In this document: piece after piece, positions 1 to 52,642 of the stretch
Layout of the letters: every line of letters starts with the position of its first letter
Numbering within the stretch: the first letter of the stretch is position 1
NCBI GenBank assembly: GCA_934271195.1
Contig: CAKQRB010000021.1
Coordinates: 21 to 64,020 of the forward strand
Source of the DNA: an uncultured Alphaproteobacteria bacterium
Lineage (GTDB): Bacteria; Pseudomonadota; Alphaproteobacteria; RF32; CAG-239
Length of the DNA: 64,000 bases
Direction: 5' to 3'
Translations under genes and position numbers: made by a program
Notes under the pieces: model-generated
Database searches by the model: none
The model's input: only the letters and a program-made list of their open reading frames with translations
What the model was told of the DNA's origin: nothing

Positions 1-60
1 TTAACTTTGGGCTGAAAGCTTAGAAAATGAGGTTGGGCTTGACTTTTGCTTACTTTTGGT

Positions 61-1465
<1,405 letters not shown>

Positions 1466-9626: not shown

Positions 9627-9743
9627 CAACACGAACTGCTCATGCTCTGACGGGCCGCATGGCAGGCTCCCAAGCCATTATAGCCGCCGCTGGCATCACG
9701 GATAAGTTTCCCATGACTCATCTGCTGGGTTTGTTTTTTTGTT

Positions 9744-10001
9744 CAAGCAAAGTAAGAAAGAATAATAACCAACTCAACAAAGAAACCAAAACAGAAAATC
9801 AGAAAAGAAAAACGATGACAAAAGAAAGAGCAGAAAGCAATAGGTGGAGAACAAGAAGCGAGCGGCGAAGTGAGAGTAAGTTGGAAAGAAAGAGAACGGA
9901 AAATAAACGAGATAAGGAAGTGAGAAAAGAGAACGGAACGAGGAAGCGGGAAAAAAATGGCGAAGGGATAAGGGAGAGAAAAGGGAGGAACAAGTCCTCC
10001 C
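9744..10001 (+). repeat. Polypurine intergenic element, copy 2
   Basis: About 258 nt. A hand count gives roughly 17 T and 25 C in 240 nt. Boxes 1 and 2 are shared with copies 1 and 3. Ends in the hairpin GGGAGGA-ACAAG-TCCTCCC. Confidence 0.75.
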
Positions 10002-10028
10002 TTCCTATTCAAGGCATGTCTTTTATCT

Positions 10029-10096
10029 CATATCCTGCCGGAGCAACGCGGTGTTCAGGGCAGTGAGCTGACAATTGAAGCCTCATCTGCAAGATA
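10029..10096. repeat. Single copy of the 99-bp hairpin repeat family
   Basis: CATATCCTGCCGGAGCAACGCGGTGTTCAGGGCAGTGAGCTGACAATTGAAGCCTCATCTGCAAG aligns (about 75% by eye) with the units at 56713-56990. It abuts the adhE stop codon. Confidence 0.65.
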
Positions 10097-10098
10097 CG

Positions 10099-12732
10099 TT
10101 ACCGATGCTCAGTTCCGTAGTAGGCGTTCAAGTACATCTGCTTGATTTCCGAAATTAACGGATAAGCCGGGTTAGCGCCGGTGCATTGGTCGTCAAACGC
10201 CAACTCCGACAACTCGTCTAACCCGTCAAGGAAAGTCTTTTCATCTACGCCCCAATCTTTGATAGAAGCCGGAATGTTAATATTTTTCTTCAACTTTTCA
10301 ATAGCCTTAATCAGGTTGGCTACTTTCTCGTCATCGTTTTTGCCGCCAAGGTTCAGAAACTCGGCAACTTTAGCATATCTTCTTTTTCCTTCCGGATAAT
10401 GATACTGTGAGAAAGTTCCCTGCTTGGTCGGTTTGTCATTGGCATTAAACTTAATGACTTCATTAATCATCAAAGCGTTTGCAATACCGTGCGGAATGTT
10501 AAAGGCGCTGCCGAGCTTATGCGCCATCGAGTGACATACGCCGAGGAAAGCCTGAGCAAAAGCCATACCGGCCATCGTAGCGGCATAATGCATATTTTCG
10601 CGGGCTTTCGGGTTGTTGGCGCCATCGTTGACAGAAAGCTCCAGATTGTCAAAAATCAGGCGGATAGCTTCATAAGCAATACCATCGGTAAACGGCGTTG
10701 CCAGAATAGAGGCCAGAGCTTCCAGCGCGTGTGTCAGCGCGTCAATACCGGAAGCGGCCGCCAGACTGCGCGGCATAGACAGAACCAAATCCGGATCAAT
10801 AATTGACATATTGGGTGTCAAAGCATAATCGGCAATCGGATATTTGATATGCGTGTTAGAGTCGGTAATAACGGCAAACGGCGTAACTTCCGAACCCGTG
10901 CCGGAGGTTGTCGGAATGGCAACCATATAGGCCTTGGAGCCAAGATCAGGGAACATACAAACGCGTTTGCGAATATCCATAAAGCGCATTGCCAAATCAT
11001 CAAATTTGACTTCCGGATGTTCATACATCAACCAGACGATTTTGGCCGCATCCATCGGAGAACCGCCGCCGAGCGCGATAATAACGTCCGGTTCAAAACT
11101 GCGGCACATCGTCAAAGCGCGATTGACGGTATCCGTATCCGGATCCGGTGCGACTTCGGAAAAAATCTGGAACGCAATGCCCATATCTTCCAAAACGGAA
11201 GTGATTTTGTTGGTGTAGCCAAGTTGAAACAACGGTTTGTCTGTAATAATCAAAGCTTTTTTCTTGCCGCAAAGCTCGCGCAAAGCAAAACCGACAGCGC
11301 CCTGTTTGAAGTAAATTTTCGGGGGAACTCTGAACCAGAGCATATTTTCGCGTCTTTCAGCAACATTTTTAATATTCAACAAGTGTTTTACTCCTACGTT
11401 TTCGCTGGCTGCATTGCCGCCCCAAGATCCACAGCCCAGAGTGAGCGACGGGTCAAGGCGGAAGTTGTACAAATCACCGATACCACCCTGAGAAGACGGG
11501 GTGTTCACAAGCATACGACCGGTTTCAATAACCTCGCTGAAGCGGGCAATACGGGCTTTGTTATGGTCGGCGGTATAAAGGACGGAAGTATGTCCGCGAC
11601 CGGCGAAATCAACCAAATCGCGCGCCATAAACACGGCCTGTTCAAAATCATTGGCTTTGTACATGGCCAGAACCGGAGAAAGTTTTTCATAAGAAAATTC
11701 TTCTTCAGTACCGATTTTCTCGGCTTCGCCAATCAGAACCTTTGTGTCTTCGGGAACTTTAACGCCGGCCATTTCGGCAATCTTATAAGCAGGTTGTCCG
11801 ACGATTTTGGCGTTCAGCTTGCCGTCAATAATGATTGTTTTGGCAACTTTCTCTTTTTCCTTTTTGCTCAGAATATAAGCGCCGCGATATTGCATCTCGT
11901 CTTTAACGGCATCATAAATGTCTTTGTGAACGATAATTGATTGTTCGGAAGCGCAAATCATGCCGTTGTCAAAAGTCTTACTCATCAAAATGGAACTGAC
12001 CGCCATTTTAATGTCGGCTGTTTCGTCGATAATGGCCGGAACGTTTCCTGCGCCCACGCCGAGAGCAGGCTTGCCAGAAGAATAAGCCGATTTGACCATG
12101 CCCGGACCGCCGGTTGCCAAAATCAGGTTAATGCCATCATGACTCATCAGATGCTGTGTAGCCTCGATTGTCGGTTCTTCAATCCAACCGATGATATTTT
12201 CCGGAGCGCCGGCTTTAACAGCGGCTTCCAACATCAGGCGGGCGGTTTCAACCGTGCATTTTTTTGCTCGCGGGTGCGGAGAAAAGATAATGCCGTTGCG
12301 GGTTTTGAGCGAAATCATACTCTTGAAAATGGTTGTGGACGTTGGGTTGGTTGTCGGAATAACGCCGGCAATCACGCCAAGCGGTTCGGCAATTTTGGTA
12401 ATGCCGTTGGTGGCGTCGTGCTCAATCACGCCACAGGTTTTGACATGGCGATATTTGTTAAAAATTTCTTCGGCGGCAAAATGGTTTTTAATCACCTTGT
12501 CTTCCACAATACCCATACCGGTTTCTTCCACGGCCATTTTTGCCAGCGGAATACGGTGGCTGTTGGCCGCAATGGCCATGGCTTCGACAATCTTGTCAAC
12601 CTGCGCCTGAGAGAATGTCGCCATAACTTTTTGTGCGGCGCTGACTTTTGCGATTAAGGTGTTCAAATCCTCAATGCTCTTGGCACCATTATCGTTTTTT
12701 TGCTCAGTTTTCGCAACAACTTCTTTTTTCAT
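10099..12732 (-). CDS. adhE: Bifunctional acetaldehyde-CoA/alcohol dehydrogenase
   Basis: N-terminal ALDH domain plus C-terminal Fe-ADH domain (GGGSPMDAAK, HSMAHKLG). Start moved to ATG 12732 (MKKEVV). Confidence 0.93.
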   Translation of the reverse strand: MKKEVVAKTEQKNDNGAKSIEDLNTLIAKVSAAQKVMATFSQAQVDKIVEAMAIAANSHRIPLAKMAVEETGMGIVEDKVIKNHFAAEEIFNKYRHVKTCGVIEHDATNGITKIAEPLGVIAGVIPTTNPTSTTIFKSMISLKTRNGIIFSPHPRAKKCTVETARLMLEAAVKAGAPENIIGWIEEPTIEATQHLMSHDGINLILATGGPGMVKSAYSSGKPALGVGAGNVPAIIDETADIKMAVSSILMSKTFDNGMICASEQSIIVHKDIYDAVKDEMQYRGAYILSKKEKEKVAKTIIIDGKLNAKIVGQPAYKIAEMAGVKVPEDTKVLIGEAEKIGTEEEFSYEKLSPVLAMYKANDFEQAVFMARDLVDFAGRGHTSVLYTADHNKARIARFSEVIETGRMLVNTPSSQGGIGDLYNFRLDPSLTLGCGSWGGNAASENVGVKHLLNIKNVAERRENMLWFRVPPKIYFKQGAVGFALRELCGKKKALIITDKPLFQLGYTNKITSVLEDMGIAFQIFSEVAPDPDTDTVNRALTMCRSFEPDVIIALGGGSPMDAAKIVWLMYEHPEVKFDDLAMRFMDIRKRVCMFPDLGSKAYMVAIPTTSGTGSEVTPFAVITDSNTHIKYPIADYALTPNMSIIDPDLVLSMPRSLAAASGIDALTHALEALASILATPFTDGIAYEAIRLIFDNLELSVNDGANNPKARENMHYAATMAGMAFAQAFLGVCHSMAHKLGSAFNIPHGIANALMINEVIKFNANDKPTKQGTFSQYHYPEGKRRYAKVAEFLNLGGKNDDEKVANLIKAIEKLKKNINIPASIKDWGVDEKTFLDGLDELSELAFDDQCTGANPAYPLISEIKQMYLNAYYGTEHR

Positions 12733-12845
12733 GTTGCTGTTACCCCTTTCGTTGCTGTTAAAATCACAATTCCTCAACAATATATAATCAATTCTCCAAA
12801 GATTGGTTAATTTTTTTTATACATGCCGAGTTATCCAAATACATT

Positions 12846-23370: not shown

Positions 23371-23446
23371 TGGTGAGCGCGTCGGGATTCGAACCCGAGA
23401 CCCTTTGATTAAAAGTCAAATGCTCTACCAACTGAGCTACGCACCC
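23371..23446 (-). tRNA. tRNA-Lys (anticodon UUU), CCA encoded
   Basis: The reverse complement reads GGGTGCGTAGCTCAGTTGGTAGAGCATTTGACTTTTAATCAAAGGGTCTCGGGTTCGAATCCCGACGCGCTCACCA. Cloverleaf with anticodon loop CTTTTAA. Confidence 0.92.
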
Positions 23447-23974: not shown

Positions 23975-24012
23975 TTATATTGTTCGCAGTTAAATTATGT
24001 AAGACAAATAAA

Positions 24013-25677
24013 ATGCTTGTACATCTGTTTTTATTGTTGTTCGTTCTGGGCGGAACTGCTTTTTTTCTGCCTAAAAACAAGTTTTCCCGTTTCTTTTCTG
24101 CATTGCTCTTTCTCTCGGCAGGAATCGGTGTTTGGAATCTTTTTCAGGCCTGTCATTCAGCGCATACAGAACCGTTTGTTTTCCATTGGATTCAATACAA
24201 AACCCTGCATATAGACATCAGTTTATCTTCCAATTTGCGCAATTTTATTCAAATTATGCCTTTTGGCGTTGTGTTGTTGTTTTCGCTTTTTAGCAATATT
24301 TTTTCTCGGCAGGAAACAAGACGTCTGCGTCTGGGCGGCCTTATGTGCATCAATCTGGCATTTTTGTTGCTTCTGATATGTGCCAACAATCTGATTGTCT
24401 TAATGATTAGTGCTTTTCTGATCGGCATCACAACGCTTTATATTATAAATGATTACGATTCGAAAAAAACTTATATCTTTTATAATCTGGTTTCTGACAT
24501 GGCCTTGTTTACGGCTTGTGCCATAATTTACAGCCGCTTTCATCAGGTCGAGTTGTCTGTATTGTTACGTTACGCCCATGAAGGCGAACACGTTTCGCTG
24601 GTTGCGTTACTGATTTTGCTGAGTTTGATGATAAAAAACGGTTTGTTTTTGTTTCAGAACCAATTGCTGAGTTTTCGGGATATCAATTTTAATCGGATGA
24701 TATTTTTGAGCTTTTGCAGTTTGCCGGTTGTCGGAATGTTGATTTATGAAAAAGCCCTGCCGTTGCTGTCTTCTTTTGAATATACCGGCATCATAATCGG
24801 AACGGCTGCAACCCTTTCCGTGCTCTATGCGCTGGGCGGAACTTTGATTTATGACGATATCAAAGAAAAAACACTGTGCTTTAATATGCTGTTTTGGGCG
24901 TTGCTATATGGCTTATCTTTGTCAATGCCGCAATTCTCTTTTGTCTCCTGCTATCCTCTGTTGTTGCTGATGCTGGCTCTGAATGGGCTGATTCATGCTT
25001 TGTCAGCCTCCGCTTCTGATGAGATTTATGCTTCTAAAATGGGCGGCTTTGCCAAAATGCTGTGGCCGCAGCTTGTTTTTTTCATCATTTGGTACGCCGT
25101 TTTTTCTCAAAATGTTTTTGCTTTAGCCCAACCGGTACCGATTCTGAACTTCGAGTTGGAAATTTTTGCTTTTACCATAGCTTTGGCTTTGGCACATTTG
25201 TTGCGTCAGGTGTTCTTCGGACCAACTCGGGCAGATGGCATTGTCTATGCGCGTTTACGGACTTTGCCTTATGCCGATTGCTGGCTTCCGGCAGTTTTGA
25301 TTTGTGGCTTCTATGCCTTGCCGCTGTCAAAAATTTCGGTCGCGGGGATAACGGCGCCGGCCGTATTTGTCCTGCTGCTGGTCATACATCCTCTGCGCGG
25401 CTTGTCACGTTATTACGCCGATGAAGAATTGCAGTTGTCAGAATTCTTCAAACGCTTTTATGAGCTGCTGATTTTAACGCCGATAACTGTTTTGGGACGA
25501 ATTTTGTGGTTGACCATAGATTTTGTAATTATAGAACGCACAATTATCAATTCTCTCTCGGATATGATAAAGATTTTAATCCGAATCTCTCAAAAAATCC
25601 ACCAGCCGCAAATGCTTAATTATATCCTGCTTACGCTTTGCGGACTGGGTATCATCTTTTTGTATGCGGGGAGATAA
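24013..25677 (+). CDS. Highly divergent NuoL-like antiporter-type subunit
   Basis: Polytopic protein with a NuoL-type C-terminal lateral-helix region (WLTIDFVIIERTIINSLSD...). The canonical WE (TM5) and KSAQ.P..WL.DAM..PTPVSAL motifs are degenerate. ATG 24013 is preferred over TTG 23980. Confidence 0.55.
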   Translation: MLVHLFLLLFVLGGTAFFLPKNKFSRFFSALLFLSAGIGVWNLFQACHSAHTEPFVFHWIQYKTLHIDISLSSNLRNFIQIMPFGVVLLFSLFSNIFSRQETRRLRLGGLMCINLAFLLLLICANNLIVLMISAFLIGITTLYIINDYDSKKTYIFYNLVSDMALFTACAIIYSRFHQVELSVLLRYAHEGEHVSLVALLILLSLMIKNGLFLFQNQLLSFRDINFNRMIFLSFCSLPVVGMLIYEKALPLLSSFEYTGIIIGTAATLSVLYALGGTLIYDDIKEKTLCFNMLFWALLYGLSLSMPQFSFVSCYPLLLLMLALNGLIHALSASASDEIYASKMGGFAKMLWPQLVFFIIWYAVFSQNVFALAQPVPILNFELEIFAFTIALALAHLLRQVFFGPTRADGIVYARLRTLPYADCWLPAVLICGFYALPLSKISVAGITAPAVFVLLLVIHPLRGLSRYYADEELQLSEFFKRFYELLILTPITVLGRILWLTIDFVIIERTIINSLSDMIKILIRISQKIHQPQMLNYILLTLCGLGIIFLYAGR

Positions 25678-25680
25678 GCC

Positions 25681-27114
25681 ATGAGCAGCAATCTTTATCT
25701 GTTGTCAATTATCATCGCTCTGCCGTTTCTGGGCATGTTGTTTGTCTTGTCTGCCAAAGATGATGACAAAACCGGCGGGCGCAATGTATATAATGTCAGC
25801 TTGTTTGCCGTCATTGCCAATATCGTGCTGATTTTGCGAATGTTTTTCCGTCTTGATGTCAAGTCTGCTGCGCTGCAGCTCACGGAACGCTTTACCTGGC
25901 TTGAAAATCCGCGCATTGATATTATTCTGGGAGTTGATGTTTTTTCCGCCTTGCTGTTGCTTGCTGTTCATATTGCCTTTATCATCGGTTTTATGGCTGT
26001 GCGGAATAATCAGCTGCGGCAGAAGTCAATGATGGTTTTTTCGTTGCTGTTTCTGAGTCAAATTACCGGTTTTTTGCTGTCGGCTGATATTTTTTCTTTT
26101 TATATCTTTTTTGAAGCCCTGCTTTTTCCGGTCTTTATGCTGATTGGCATTTTTGGCGATATCCGTCGGCAGGGGACGATGTATCGCTTTTTCCTGTACA
26201 ATTTTCTGGGAGCCGTCGTGCTGTTTTTAGCCACCATTATTCTGTATAATTACCAAAACGGTGCGGTTGAAATCACCAAAGTTGCGGATTTGTCGTTTAA
26301 CGGCCGGATAGAACACTTTATGTGGGCGTCGATCTTAATCTCGTTTCTGTCGCGCATACCGGTCTGGCCTTTCCATTTCTGGATTTCTTCGGTTAGCTCC
26401 AGCATCAAAAACCCGCTTGTATTTATTATCGTCAACCTGATACCGCTGACCGGAATTTACGGCCTGATACGCTTCTTGCCGCAAACGTTTCCTCCCTCCG
26501 CTGCATTTTATATAACGGCGCTGGAAATCATCGGCGTCGTGACCATGCTCTTCATTGCGCTGATAGGTTTTATCAATAAAGATACGCAGTATAAGTTCTT
26601 TTCTTACATAACTGTCTATTACATTATGTATATGCTGGGACTGCTGAGCAAAAACAGCCTGATTATGCTGAATGTCGGGTTTTCTTTCTTCAGCTACCTG
26701 ATTATCGTGGCCGGCTTGGAGTTTGTGTTTGGATATATCCGCACTCAGCAGGAAAAACTGGAACTCGGAACGGAAGGTTTGCTCTGTCCTGTACCAAGAC
26801 TGTCATTCGTCTATTCCTTTCTGGTGCTGGCGGCCATCGGCCTTCCTGTCTCATCTTTGTTCCTGAACAATTTTTTAATCATTTCCAGCCTGCTGGAAAA
26901 TAACTTCAATCTGGGAATAACGGTCATTGGTGCTCTGGTTCTGTCGTCCGGCGCACTGCTGGGAGATTTGTACCGCCTGAAAGACAGTTCGGCTTTCAGT
27001 CCGGACAAAGGCTGTATACTGGATATTTCCAGACCGTATTTTGTGTTTTTGGTGTTTATCATATTTGTTTTAATCGCCTCTTTTGTCAGACCCTTATGGT
27101 TTTTGGGTGTGTAG
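25681..27114 (+). CDS. Divergent NuoM-like antiporter-type subunit
   Basis: FYIFFEALLFPVFMLIGIFG aligns with NuoM FFFWELMLVPMYFLIGIWG (TM5 Glu kept). FLSRIPVWPFHFWISSVSSS aligns with FAVKMPVVPLHGWLPDAHSQ, with the Lys and the LPDAH motif lost. Confidence 0.65.
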   Translation: MSSNLYLLSIIIALPFLGMLFVLSAKDDDKTGGRNVYNVSLFAVIANIVLILRMFFRLDVKSAALQLTERFTWLENPRIDIILGVDVFSALLLLAVHIAFIIGFMAVRNNQLRQKSMMVFSLLFLSQITGFLLSADIFSFYIFFEALLFPVFMLIGIFGDIRRQGTMYRFFLYNFLGAVVLFLATIILYNYQNGAVEITKVADLSFNGRIEHFMWASILISFLSRIPVWPFHFWISSVSSSIKNPLVFIIVNLIPLTGIYGLIRFLPQTFPPSAAFYITALEIIGVVTMLFIALIGFINKDTQYKFFSYITVYYIMYMLGLLSKNSLIMLNVGFSFFSYLIIVAGLEFVFGYIRTQQEKLELGTEGLLCPVPRLSFVYSFLVLAAIGLPVSSLFLNNFLIISSLLENNFNLGITVIGALVLSSGALLGDLYRLKDSSAFSPDKGCILDISRPYFVFLVFIIFVLIASFVRPLWFLGV

Positions 27115-27123
27115 GAGAAAAAA

Positions 27124-37625: not shown

Positions 37626-38702
37626 CTACGAACAACTGTAACTGTGATTAAACTCGCCATCACAAAGAGTTGAAGGGCATCTGCTAGAGCTCTCGTGGTC
37701 ATCCGCCGCCCAATCACACCAATCCTGCTGTTTCCAACACGCTTCTGAAATGTTATAATTTCCTCCGGTATAGTCGCAACTCAAAAAACACCATCCGCCT
37801 GACCAAGTTGTAGAAATACTTGTAAGAGAATGGCAACTTGATCCGCCACCGGAACTACCACCGCCGGAATAACATCCAGAGCCACCGCAGCGCGTATCAC
37901 ATGATTGGATAGATCCGTCAGTACAGCAGTCACCATGACATGTTGAGTGAACGGAACACCAGTCTGAAGAGTAGCGATTACAACATGAAACGGAGTTATA
38001 GCAGGTTTTGTTGCCACAACCGTTTTTCTTGGAGGACGAACATCCGGTAGGGTCAGAGGAATAAGGATAACCGGACGGGCAGTTCATGTTGCAGGTGTAA
38101 TAACAGGTATATTCGCAGCCGTCGGTGCCGTTCGTTCCGTAGTTCTTAGAAGTAAGAGAAGTATAATCGGGACAACCTGACGGTTTACAACAGGTTCCGT
38201 AAGAATTATCATAAGAGCATCGTCCGGAGTTCTTTTTAAGCTTCTGACCGGAAGGACAAGAGTTAGTATAACCTGTATCCCGACAAGCGCGGGGATTGTC
38301 AGTCTTGCATTGTTTGTAAAGAGAACCGTCACTCGGACAAGGAGTGTCAACATATTGAGGAATGGAGCATGAGGTCGTGTTATATCCGTTTTGTTTACAC
38401 CACTTCGCGGCGTCGCATTTAAGATAATGGTCGTCACGAGAACATTTTCCGGCATCGGCATAATATTGCGGACACTTGCCGTCAGCATAGTAGGTGAAGC
38501 CGTTGCTTTCACAAAAAGCGGAATCTTCATTCATATTCATGTTTCCGCCGCCACCGGCAAGATCATCATCAGCACAGTCTGGCAGGAAGCAAACGCCACA
38601 GTAAGCGGAGGTTGGGAGGAGAACCGAGAAAGCTGCGGCAACAGCAAAAACTGACACCGCAGAGTTTAGTTTCATGTGTAGCATAGTGTTAGTATTCTTC
38701 AT
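37626..38702 (-). CDS. Secreted cysteine-rich protein (about 41 Cys in 358 aa)
   Basis: GGGAGGAAGCCG RBS. Signal peptide ...AVSVFAVAAAFSVLLPTSA. G/S/Y/N/C-rich mature part with recurring G[YF]T..C and CPSG motifs. Confidence 0.75.
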   Translation of the reverse strand: MKNTNTMLHMKLNSAVSVFAVAAAFSVLLPTSAYCGVCFLPDCADDDLAGGGGNMNMNEDSAFCESNGFTYYADGKCPQYYADAGKCSRDDHYLKCDAAKWCKQNGYNTTSCSIPQYVDTPCPSDGSLYKQCKTDNPRACRDTGYTNSCPSGQKLKKNSGRCSYDNSYGTCCKPSGCPDYTSLTSKNYGTNGTDGCEYTCYYTCNMNCPSGYPYSSDPTGCSSSKKNGCGNKTCYNSVSCCNRYSSDWCSVHSTCHGDCCTDGSIQSCDTRCGGSGCYSGGGSSGGGSSCHSLTSISTTWSGGWCFLSCDYTGGNYNISEACWKQQDWCDWAADDHESSSRCPSTLCDGEFNHSYSCS

Positions 38703-38937
38703 CGGCTTCCTCCCTAAAAAGTTCCAATACTAAGATTAGTATATCATAAAGAAACGCCAGTGTCAAACACTCATGAAGAATAATGTGGAAATTTTGGGCA
38801 GAGGAGTGGGAAAAGCAGTGGAGATTTTGGCTAAGATAAAAACTTTAGCCAAATCTGTGTGTTATCGTCTAAAAGCATAAAATTAAACACTTTATCAAAG
38901 ACAAGCTTAAGGAGAATATTAAATTTAAGAAACCATC

Positions 38938-39756: not shown

Positions 39757-39945
39757 AAAAAAATCCCGAAAGGGGGATTTTATTGGGAAGGTGCCGTCTG
39801 ACCGTATGGATTACATTCTAATCGAACCGCTTGGACAAAGTGGGTGCCGTAATAACTAAACCTCGGTTCAGACAGGGACAGCTCCCTATAAAAAAATGTT
39901 GGCTCGGTAGACCTGCGGAAATACGAGCCAGACAGTCACCTTCTA
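39757..39945 (-). ncRNA. Candidate structured ncRNA downstream of zapA (possibly 6S/SsrS by position)
   Basis: Long-range pairing of GAAGGUG..GUCUG (39943-39929) with CAGAC..CACCUUC (39800-39787). Internal hairpins. Ends in the terminator AUCCC-loop-GGGAU-U7. Confidence 0.4.
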
Positions 39946-47215: not shown

Positions 47216-47280
47216 CGTGAAAATCCGCTTGCAAATCTTGACTTTTTTAAGCGCCGCCGATGTTCGTCCTTTGGGTCATA

Positions 47281-47449
47281 TAAAAGTAAAAAAGAAGAAT
47301 AACCAACTCTATGAAAAAAACAAAAGCCTAAAATAAAAAAAGAGAATGATAGTGGATATGAGGACGGAAAAAGGGCGGAGTGAGGAAAGAGAGCGGAACA
47401 AGGAAGCTGGAAAAGAAAGTGATGGCGAGAGGGGAATTTTTCCCCTCTT
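47281..47449 (+). repeat. Polypurine intergenic element, copy 3 (shorter)
   Basis: AAAAGTAAAAAAGAAGAATAACCAACTC... and GGGCGGAGTGAGGAAAGAGAGCGGAACAAGGAAG match boxes 1 and 2. Ends in the hairpin AGAGGGGA-ATTTT-TCCCCTCT, which abuts the elbB stop. Confidence 0.7.
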
Positions 47450-48133
47450 TCATGATATCAGCTCAACCATTGCGTCCACCAGATTCCGTGTCCCTCGCGC
47501 AATTTCACGAATTGATTTCGCCAGCATATAACACGGGGTTGTCACAATCTTGTTTTCTTCATCTACGCAAACGTCTGTTGCGCCACAGTCTTCATGTGCC
47601 GCACCCATTTGACGGATTCCGAGGGCAACGGTTTCTTCGTGTCCAATGGTAACTTTAATTTTGTTTTGTCCCAAAACTCTGGCAATCACCACCGGCGCAA
47701 TACACATCGCTCCGATGACGATTCCTTGTCTGTGACTTTCTTCTAGAACACGTTTTACTTCTTCGTTTACGTCGCATTTCGCGCCTTTGGCAGCAAAATC
47801 AGACAGATTCATCGCCGCCCCAAAACCGCCGGGGAAGACAACGGCGTCAAAATCCTGCGCTCTGAATTCTGACAAATCCAAAATATTGCCGCGGGCAATA
47901 CGGGCAGATTCCGCCAGTACGTTGCGGTTGTCGTCATCACCGGCAATAGCGGTGGACTGGCCGGTAAAATGGTCAATAGTCTTGGCCTGCCAAGTATTGG
48001 GGGCAAAGCATTGGTAAGAACATCCGGCTTCGTCAATAGCCAGCAGGGTACATACTGCCTCATGAATTTCTGAACCGTCAAAAACGCCGCATCCGGACAA
48101 GACAACTGCAAATTTGGGAGCTTCCATCATCAT
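47450..48133 (-). CDS. elbB: DJ-1/PfpI-family protein ElbB
   Basis: KFAVVLSGCGVFDGSEIHEAV and MCIAP match the ElbB pattern. Confidence 0.8.
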   Translation of the reverse strand: MMMEAPKFAVVLSGCGVFDGSEIHEAVCTLLAIDEAGCSYQCFAPNTWQAKTIDHFTGQSTAIAGDDDNRNVLAESARIARGNILDLSEFRAQDFDAVVFPGGFGAAMNLSDFAAKGAKCDVNEEVKRVLEESHRQGIVIGAMCIAPVVIARVLGQNKIKVTIGHEETVALGIRQMGAAHEDCGATDVCVDEENKIVTTPCYMLAKSIREIARGTRNLVDAMVELIS

Positions 48134-52024: not shown

Positions 52025-52642
52025 ATGAGTGAAGAAGATGAATGGCAAAAGCAGATAAAAGAAGCGGAGGAACAAGCCGCCAAAATCGAACAAATGCGTC
52101 AAAATCTGCAAAATAGTGGAGACGAAAGAAATTTAAGGGTAGAAAAAGAAGTGCCGGTGTTTGGGGACGAAACCAAATATAAATTAACGGACAATACCGG
52201 CGCTTGTACCGAGATCCATATTAAAGACAGCGGAAAGGTCGAAGCCCGTGGCGAGCAGACCGAGCTGGCGGACAATGTGGAAAAGAACGAAAAAGTTCAG
52301 CCTAAAAACGCTCATCCGGAAGCGCAAAGCGACGTTCGCCGACAGGCATATCAGGCGATTGACGCATCGGTATTGACCGAAGCGGAAAAGACAGAGTTAA
52401 AACAACGGGTTGAGAATTATAACTTTGCTGAAGCCAAAGAAAAACCGGAAGAAATGGTCGAAAGCTTAAAAACGTCAGTCAGCCGGCAGGAAAATAAAAA
52501 ACAGGAAGACGCAGAAAAAATTCAGCAACATCGAGGCGTGAGCAATAAGAAAAAACAAGACGTGTCGAGAAATTCTGACCGTATGATAAACAAAAGTCTG
52601 ACGGCCGAAACGCTGAAAGATCTCGCCAATAAAGGAAGATAA
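52025..52642 (+). CDS. Acidic/charged coiled-coil hypothetical protein
   Basis: In ORF 51788..52642, only the part after ATG 52025 (GGAG RBS) is free of rnhA overlap. Confidence 0.5.
   Translation: MSEEDEWQKQIKEAEEQAAKIEQMRQNLQNSGDERNLRVEKEVPVFGDETKYKLTDNTGACTEIHIKDSGKVEARGEQTELADNVEKNEKVQPKNAHPEAQSDVRRQAYQAIDASVLTEAEKTELKQRVENYNFAEAKEKPEEMVESLKTSVSRQENKKQEDAEKIQQHRGVSNKKKQDVSRNSDRMINKSLTAETLKDLANKGR

Follow-up and report, generated by a model that had tools for sequence, protein, structure and literature searches.

A candidate bipartite intergenic repeat with a structured module and a polypurine tail in uncultured gut Alphaproteobacteria

Introduction

Bacterial intergenic repeat families such as REP/BIME, ERIC, RIME of rhizobia, Correia/NEMIS, and RPE are multi-copy and often located between convergent genes; they are imperfect palindromes under compensatory change, with modular, mosaic, and shortened variants, they are tied to rearrangements and assembly breaks, and they may form RNA hairpins if cotranscribed. 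Here, we describe a repeat unit that shares all of these features, which came to light through purine-rich intergenic stretches in 64,000 nucleotides (nt) of DNA from an uncultured alphaproteobacterium of the GTDB lineage RF32, CAG-239 (assembly GCA_934271195.1, contig CAKQRB010000021.1, positions 21 to 64,020 of the forward strand; hereafter the window). Our comparison rests on general knowledge of these families, and by that measure the unit differs from them in its larger size (approximately 350 to 650 nt) and in that we detected neither terminal inverted repeats nor a target duplication or partner transposase; its sequence matches none of them. We know of no described REP/BIME/ERIC-like family with a 130- to 260-nt strand-specific polypurine tail, and to our knowledge a long polypurine tail has no precedent among bacterial repeats.

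Other known systems share parts of this layout. CrcZ/CrcY, with their A-rich Hfq-binding motifs, and CsrB/RsmZ, with their GGA motifs, are likewise A/G-rich RNAs of several hundred nucleotides that may offer a single-stranded platform and may be present in multiple copies; unlike these sponges, however, the unit has GGA neither above composition nor in hairpin loops, we detected no promoter or terminator dedicated to it, and its copies are dispersed, shortened, and mosaic in the manner of a repeat element. Eukaryotic short interspersed nuclear elements (SINEs) resemble the unit in having a structured 5′ body, a purine- or A-rich 3′ tail of variable length, and dispersed copies, some of them lacking the 5′ part, whereas the unit has, instead of poly(A), a tail in which A and G are mixed and boxes are inherited, its shortening is two-sided, and neither target-site duplications nor a reverse transcriptase was seen; we know of no bacterial SINE. 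PATEs derived from IS200/IS605 and REP-RAYT systems have in common with the unit strand-specific imperfect hairpins that tolerate G-T pairs, an orientation bias, and small nonautonomous derivatives, but the hairpins of the unit are unrelated to those of a nearby IS200 copy, its module is far longer than a REP, and its tail would be left unexplained.

Results

Purine-rich stretches of the window as tails of a larger repeat unit

An earlier note, made from the sequence alone, had proposed that three intergenic stretches of the window are copies of one polypurine element lying on the same strand. In a 100-nt sliding window with a threshold of at least 75% A+G, the + strand was purine rich only at positions 61 to 340 (81.4% A+G), 9744 to 10001 (80.6%), and 47281 to 47449 (74.6%), hereafter copies 1 to 3, besides one coding stretch at 52031 to 52132. 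Since the same scan detected no pyrimidine-rich stretch in the window, all three copies lie on one strand, as had been proposed. Copy 2 contains 134 A, 74 G, 31 C, and 19 T in 258 nt, where a hand count over some 240 nt had arrived at 25 C and 17 T. The copies are homologous and not merely alike in composition: the 27-nt box 1 pattern, AAAGTAARAAAGAAKAAWAAMCAACTC, matched the window three times with no mismatches, precisely in the three stretches, while shuffled sequences give an expectation of 0.00. A second box, AAGAAGCGAGCGGCGRAGNGAGAG, which had been thought to recur in every copy, is complete only in copies 1 and 2, with copy 3 retaining just an 11-nt core, GGCGGAGTGAG.

The family also recurs outside the window. 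Among 185,579 species genomes, box 1 had 13 matches, all in two metagenome-assembled genomes (MAGs) of uncultured Alphaproteobacteria, one from water deer rectum and the other from mouse gut, and a metagenome scan with a 20-mer of the module described below returned seven true loci together with two further module subfamilies. These loci changed the picture of the element, which had been taken to be the polypurine tract as such: 17 units carry a conserved module that extends 5′ of box 1, and the tract is what follows it. The polypurine stretches are the 3′ tails of a bipartite intergenic repeat that is present in multiple copies in a narrow group of uncultured gut Alphaproteobacteria.

From 5′ to 3′ along the purine strand, the complete unit is made up of an optional, degenerate half-module (the leader); a GC hairpin, CCCCTC..GAGGGG; a module of approximately 190 nt closed by GAGUUG/CAACUC, with an irregular stem-loop of approximately 150 nt and a second hairpin inside; a strongly conserved single-stranded box (box 1b), UAUGAAGAAACCAAAACCCGAAAAU; and a tail of 130 to 260 nt that is 80 to 89% purine and in which the boxes are loosely conserved. 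There are three copies in the 64-kb window and at least 10 and 4 in the two MAGs. The distribution of the family is narrow; species whose AdhE is 82 to 94% identical to that of the window have no module and no polypurine tract within 10 kb of adhE.

We then compared the unit with the databases. Consistent with the earlier note, which had recognized no Rfam family, Rfam 15 matched only a tRNA and a 6S RNA in the window, both of them elsewhere, and only rRNA in the 21 unit-bearing loci searched (loci are designated by L numbers); the complete unit, searched at an E value of up to 10, gave chance-level scores of 12 to 19 bits against gathering scores of 36 to 90. No match to the unit was present in phage, plasmid, and viral collections, and a literature search found no description of the repeat. 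The unit shares only the generic properties of a repeat with known systems and appears to be previously undescribed.

Conserved pairing of the module on the purine strand

The fold of a single unit reached −87.6 kcal/mol, with a z-score of −6.45 relative to shuffles. The GC hairpin comes first, followed by the closing helix GAGUUG/CAACUC, which encloses the long irregular stem-loop and the second hairpin; box 1 provides the 3′ strands of two helices, its end belonging to the closing helix and its start to the second hairpin. When 16 distinct modules were analyzed with RNAalifold, the long stem comprised 29 pairs with 97.2% of cells paired, and 12 of these pairs, amounting to 52 cells, had changed on both sides, a result that was reached by 0 of 500 shuffles. 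As a control, the partner strand was slid by 1 to 3 columns, and pairing of the long stem fell to 27 to 67%. The structure of the whole module has 68 pairs, of which 19 covary, and 89.4% of its cells are paired; these figures are somewhat favored by construction because the structure was derived from one member. The last hairpin also covaries among the subfamilies, reading CTTAC/GTAAG, GTTAC/GTAAC, or GCTAC/GTAGC. Altogether, selection acts on the module to keep the purine strand paired, and the module constitutes a well-supported new RNA-like motif. With 12 covarying pairs in a multi-copy, intergenic, structure-conserved imperfect palindrome, it has the generic traits of a REP/BIME/ERIC-type repeat.

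The strand was read from two lines of evidence. Among the cells of the long stem, 30 are G-U and 4 are A-C, with two G-U pairs invariant or nearly so, and a covariance model built on 16 units (R1) scored approximately 200 bits on the purine strand versus approximately 30 bits on the other strand. Because of this excess of G-U over A-C and the scores of the two strands, the fold is assigned to the purine strand, and the possibility raised earlier of a CU-rich RNA transcribed from the minus strand is disfavored. A profile of the peptide that would arise from read-through of the module on the minus strand matched only 2 called proteins in a collection of 5.8 billion. The purine-strand structure is that of an RNA or, less likely, of single-stranded DNA.

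Mini GC hairpins, GCCGGCCTCCCGGC and GCCGACGTTCGGC, occur at varied positions within the module, each immediately 5′ of CTTT(T)GG and each terminator-like on the purine strand. They are located at the module apex in L007, L009, and L013 and at the last hairpin in L004, L005, L007, L009, and L013.

Dispersal of the unit and exchange between copies

All copies are intergenic, and the downstream gene is convergent in approximately 13 of 19 cases. Units are found singly or in tandem (L006 and L013), along with fragments shortened on either side, some of which are joined to other units; these fragments span model positions 13 to 69 in L026 and 64 to 157 in L023, and that of L019 ends at 147. A leader precedes many units and is in turn a degenerate 5′ half-module, with the same AAGCAC motif at its end. 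Many copies sit at contig ends, contigs of relatives end inside or just before a unit, and in several places the gene order between relatives changes precisely at the unit.

At sites common to the two MAGs, the flanks are 93 to 97% identical and the modules 92 to 94%. In three shared site pairs, the tails have diverged by 18% and show 22 gaps over 431 nt, whereas the flanks differ by 4 to 5% in two of these pairs; at the site shared by L004 and L011, the two loci carry different hairpin variants. The gaps in the tails and the switch of hairpin variant point to sequence exchange among the copies and not to point mutation. Copies within a genome are more alike than orthologous copies across species. 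In some tails, short purine motifs are tandemly expanded, as exemplified by GGAAGGAGAGG, which is present four times in L008. No terminal inverted repeats or target-site duplications were recognized at the junctions compared (the window versus L042 and L040, and L009 versus window positions 38700 to 38880), where the ends of the units are heterogeneous, and local GC skew gave no consistent orientation signal relative to replication.

The three copies of the window

The features of the window copies are listed in Table 1. Copy 1 neighbors tgt (341 to 1465; Pfam TGT), copy 2 neighbors genes for a Gate-domain membrane protein and AdhE, and copy 3 neighbors genes for TrcR and a DJ-1/PfpI protein.

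Table 1. Coordinates of the repeat copies and adjoining features in the window
Feature	Positions	Strand	Remarks
Copy 1, 3′ half of structured module	1 to 93	+	5′ side cut by window start
Copy 1, polypurine tail	94 to 340	+	Box 1b at ~94 to 130; box 2 at 182 to 205; reaches tgt start codon at 341
Copy 2, remnant of module 3′ end (box 1 only)	9726 to 9775	+	Long stem missing
Copy 2, polypurine tail	9776 to 9982	+	Box 2 at 9853 to 9876; unstructured as RNA; no start codon
GC hairpin GGGAGGA/TCCTCCC	9983 to 10001	−	Intrinsic terminator of adhE (10099 to 12780, minus strand); outside the repeat
40-nt motif GCAACGCGGTGTTCAGGGCA.TGAGCTGACA.TTGA	10043 to 10080		Between adhE stop and adhE terminator
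Copy 3, last-hairpin remnant (variant with mini GC hairpin GCCGATGTTCG) and box 1	47237 to 47309	+	5′ junction between TTGCAAATCTT and GAC
Copy 3, polypurine tail	47310 to 47427	+	Short; box 2 core at 47374 to 47384; ATG frame stops after 6 codons
Hairpin AGAGGGGA/TCCCCTCT	47428 to 47448		Candidate part of the repeat or of the DJ-1/PfpI gene

Copy 1 is probably complete apart from the cut at the window edge. Its module part comprises the long stem's 3′ arm along with the last hairpin (CTTACTTTTG-GTCAAG-CAAAAGTAAG) and box 1, whose final CAACTC is the closing-stem strand. This part matched covariance model R1 over model positions 91 to 187 with 86.9 bits (E value of 1.4e-21, with the 5′ end flagged as truncated), nhmmer matched window positions 2 to 93 to the module with an E value of 1e-25, and the same sequence is present in the full units of L002, L003, and L006. 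The ATG that is conserved after CAACTC in other units has changed to AAG (window positions 94 to 96). An independent assembly of the tgt locus, L001, has its break inside the tail of copy 1.

Copies 2 and 3 keep just the last 50 to 70 nt of the module, plus the tail; they are decayed, 5′-deleted relics, probably inert and, taken alone, unlikely to be functional. The remnant in copy 2 was matched by nhmmer to model positions 137 to 187 (E value of 5.5e-06) and scored 15.9 bits with the covariance model (E value of 0.084). The fold of positions 9744 to 10010 was no better than that of shuffles (z-score of 0.07), with nothing beyond the terminator of the neighbor.

It had been noted that copies 2 and 3 each end in a GC hairpin. 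Both hairpins are present, but the first is the terminator of adhE and not part of the element. It is assigned to adhE because it is retained in a sister species without the element (L037, with an AdhE 94% identical), where GGGAGGATTTGTTCCTCCC and then TTTTTT come directly after the adhE stop and there is no polypurine tract or module. In L037 the hairpin is present and the 40-nt motif of Table 1 is absent. By an approximate-match search of all loci, the 40-nt motif and the GGGAGGA/TCCTCCC hairpin were also detected 3′ of a flagellin gene adjoining full units in L002 and L007, the downstream gene of L007 being called flagellin from sequence reading alone. The assignment of L002 and L007 as orthologues of window copy 2 was withdrawn, since their neighbor is flagellin rather than adhE and they share with copy 2 only the hairpin and the 40-nt motif.

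The remnant in copy 3 corresponds to model positions 128 to 187 by nhmmer (E value of 7.3e-07) and scored 24.1 bits with the covariance model (E value of 4e-4); its tail is nearly invariant among four contigs of the same species (L039, L041, L043, and L044). In L042 (GCA_017480965.1), which encodes an identical TrcR, the TrcR terminator is followed on its 3′ side first by a promoter and a conserved leader, then by a small XRE-like gene and a repeat resembling a miniature inverted-repeat transposable element (MITE), and finally by a full module with its tail. In the window, the sequence passes from the −35 region of this promoter directly into the last hairpin of the module, and by this comparison copy 3 is a deletion derivative relative to the full unit of L042. 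The hairpin at its 3′ end lies directly after the stop of the DJ-1/PfpI gene (47450 to 48133, minus strand), and a scan for terminator-like structures flags it on the + strand.

What the unit may be

The reading that we favor, tentatively and at somewhat less than even confidence, is that of a repeat element expressed as purine-strand RNA and homogenized by recombination, without a dedicated function in trans. The unit would be read as RNA of the purine strand, for the most part through transcription running in from outside (read-through) or starting at weak local promoters, because sigma-70 and terminator scans revealed no consistent promoter or own terminator for this strand; tails extend to the terminator or stop codon of the neighbor, the tail in L009 abutting the smpB stop. 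The module would form a very stable RNA head. Rho needs C-rich RNA and RNase E needs A/U-rich sites, and the tail, which contains 7% C and 6% U and appears unfoldable, may be a poor substrate for both; the head would then carry a long and lasting single-stranded extension. Recombination or gene conversion between copies, or some mobilizing activity, would keep up the family and homogenize it.

Several points weigh against this reading. It is from the G-U pairs alone that transcription of the purine strand would follow, and hairpins of single-stranded DNA, REP among them, tolerate G-T pairs as well. The scans of the units for promoters and own terminators, which found none that was consistent, count here as well, and several units lie directly behind strong terminators or beside divergent genes, so that read-through may be low. 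No mobilizing enzyme, target-site duplication, or within-species presence/absence polymorphism was demonstrated, and copy 3 is stable over the four same-species contigs. The conservation of box 1b, the conserved AUG, and the lasting purine bias suggest a function of the tail that this reading leaves unspecified, and the tail statistics given below count related copies as independent.

If expressed in the way we propose, the unit would represent an undescribed structured RNA motif, absent from Rfam and supported by compensatory changes, and a folded head joined to a long purine-only tail would be an unusual bacterial architecture in a poorly known clade of gut Alphaproteobacteria. The units also have practical consequences: they break short-read assemblies, coincide with changes of gene order, create long spurious open reading frames on both strands, and can be mistaken for gene leaders, as is the case 5′ of tgt.

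A doubtful, though serious, alternative is a family of trans-acting regulatory RNAs similar to CrcZ/CsrB, in which the structured 5′ domain would provide stability or recognition and the A/G tail would titrate the distal face of Hfq via (ARN)n, S1, a CsrA-like protein, or pyrimidine-rich RNAs. The covarying RNA structure of the purine strand, the very well conserved, single-stranded box 1b with its unfoldable tail, and the high copy number, at least 10 in one MAG, would all suit such a family, and a candidate + strand promoter, TTGGCT-N18-TATAAA, can be read from the sequence 5′ of units that follow divergent genes in L004, L009, L011, and L013. The motif content of the tails does not. GGA occurs 218 times versus 207 expected (z-score of 1.1), AGGA 84 times versus 99, and AGGAG at expectation, while GGAGG is found 3 times versus 31 expected (z-score of −5.5) and GAGG 51 times versus 81; CGG and GCGG are enriched. 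Because the copies are related, these z-scores are inflated and indicative only. A-rich, ARN-like stretches are plentiful, as composition alone predicts. These counts give no support to the anti-Shine-Dalgarno or CsrA sponge that the earlier note had envisaged: GGA is neither raised above expectation nor displayed in hairpin loops as in CsrB/RsmZ, the tail having no hairpins, and GGAGG, whose enrichment, or that of AGGAGG, would mark an anti-Shine-Dalgarno target, is depleted. Pairing between leader and tail gave duplex energies mostly within approximately 1.5 standard deviations of composition-shuffled tails, those of L003 and L015 being somewhat better, and the fold of a whole unit had a z-score of only −1.8. 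Also at odds with regulation in trans are the lack of a consistent promoter or own terminator, with tails that stop at the neighbor's terminator or stop codon, and the many copies that are shortened or mosaic; by tblastn, Hfq, CsrA, and ProQ were not found in the window or the loci, which cover a small part of any genome. We likewise consider it unlikely that the unit stands for a bipartite RNA class, with a head of approximately 190 nt and a Rho- and RNase E-resistant tail of 130 to 260 nt, present in at least 10 copies per genome and serving in trans as a sponge or scaffold of a protein or of pyrimidine-rich RNAs, or else for the first bacterial SINE-like element, propagated through an RNA intermediate.

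Mobilization as single-stranded DNA by a Y1/HUH transposase, in the manner of REP/RAYT or of IS200/IS605-derived, PATE-like elements, would make the hairpins structures of top-strand DNA, and we judge this improbable, though, like the trans-acting RNA, a serious rival. It would account for strand-specific imperfect palindromes that include G-T pairs, for the one orientation shared by the three window copies, and for the mosaic, scattered units and their nesting among other palindromic repeats, and an IS200-type tnpA gene does lie beside one unit in the same community. However, this IS200 copy bears end hairpins of its own that are unrelated to those of the unit, and it was rejected as the mobilizer of the unit, being a neighboring insertion. 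No fixed target motif or duplication was seen, local GC skew gives no consistent orientation signal, and a polypurine tail of 130 to 260 nt is not explained by single-stranded DNA transposition.

A SINE-like retroposon, in which reverse transcription of an RNA that combines a structured 5′ body with a purine- or A-rich 3′ tail yields 5′-shortened copies, is very improbable, even though the layout of a structured head and an A/G-rich tail, the missing 5′ part of window copies 2 and 3, and the tandem expansion of short purine motifs (the fourfold GGAAGGAGAGG of L008) recall one. Shortening occurs on both sides (L026, L023, and L019), copy 3 is accounted for by deletion relative to L042, and neither target-site duplications nor a reverse transcriptase gene was seen in any locus; moreover, the tails share ordered boxes, which argues that they are inherited and not newly synthesized.

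It is scarcely credible that the tails, starting at the conserved AUG, encode small, highly charged peptides rich in K, E, R, and G (MKKPKPENKK...) or that they are what is left of a decayed gene of this kind. An ATG followed by AAG AAA does come immediately after CAACTC in nearly all full units, though adjacent bases vary, codon 6 varies among CCC, CCA, and CCT, and the depletion of T opens reading frames. But the ATG is missing from window copies 1 and 2, the AUG directly adjoins a stable helix and has no properly spaced Shine-Dalgarno sequence, and the tails have no conserved reading frame, with stops scattered over codons 6, 8, 25, 29, 35, 47, 52, 71, and 76. The frame of homologous tail blocks changes from copy to copy, the length of only 23% of 1429 indels is divisible by 3, and neither a 3-nt nor a 10- to 11-nt periodicity was detected in the tails. 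T and C have similar frequencies, so there is no specific avoidance of stop codons. The positions of stops, the frames, and the lengths of indels rule out coding by the tails, in agreement with the earlier note.

Next to no weight attaches to a DNA structural element, in which H-DNA triplexes of the polypurine/polypyrimidine tract, as had been suggested, or R-loops would form a barrier between convergent genes, for although the downstream gene is often convergent and the strand asymmetry strong, H-DNA is ruled out by short purine runs (median of 5 nt uninterrupted; longest of 22, 21, and 12 nt in the window copies) and by mirror repeats that are not enriched in the tails (arms of 5 to 9 nt, equal to those of shuffles), the covarying module and conserved boxes are left unexplained, and convergent intergenic regions also simply tolerate insertions best.

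Other features near the units and in the window

A small XRE-like gene (86 to 113 amino acids), preceded by a promoter-like TTGCAA-N17-TATGAT and a conserved leader of approximately 200 nt, is present in L042 (3590 to 3822), L045, and L023 (reverse strand, approximately 100 to 330). The leader of this gene has no Rfam match. A full unit lies directly 3′ of the gene in L042 and L023, and the contig of L045 ends within the gene; paralogous small genes are found immediately 5′ of full units in L003 (2549 to 2809) and at the start of L008. This recurrent adjacency may or may not be meaningful.

The genomes carrying units are rich in intergenic repeats. MITE-like palindromic repeats of the GTCATTGCCGGACTTCGATCCGGCAATCC ... 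GAGAATGACA and GTCATCCTGAGC types are located 5′ of units in L007, L014, L026, L030, and L042. Positions 553 to 1088 of L030 hold the IS200-type tnpA (613 to 1041, identified by sequence reading from an HVVWTCKYRR motif) flanked by CCCCGGGTTTACCCGGGG hairpins; it sits in a MITE-like repeat approximately 300 nt 5′ of the unit, and its ends are unrelated to the module. Between convergent genes of L037 (18880 to 18990), a tandem repeat of approximately 29 nt is present three times (CCCGGGGATGACGAAAGAAAAAAGAGCT); it is purine rich and unrelated to the family.

A family of Cys-rich secreted proteins is represented in the window (37626 to 38702, minus strand; upstream region at 38703 to 38850) and in L004, L009, L011, and L013. 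The upstream region is conserved and in L009 includes the promoter TTGACA-17-TATAGT on the minus strand. The MAGs have a repeat unit after this upstream region on the other strand, and the window copy of the gene has no unit.

The two Rfam matches in the window are the 6S RNA gene at 39788 to 39941 (minus strand; 51.7 bits versus a gathering score of 46.4) and the tRNA gene at 23374 to 23446 (minus strand). Window positions 24001 to 28000 have an AT skew of −0.30 over three consecutive + strand open reading frames (23980 to 28539), which may stem from the T-rich codons of membrane proteins.

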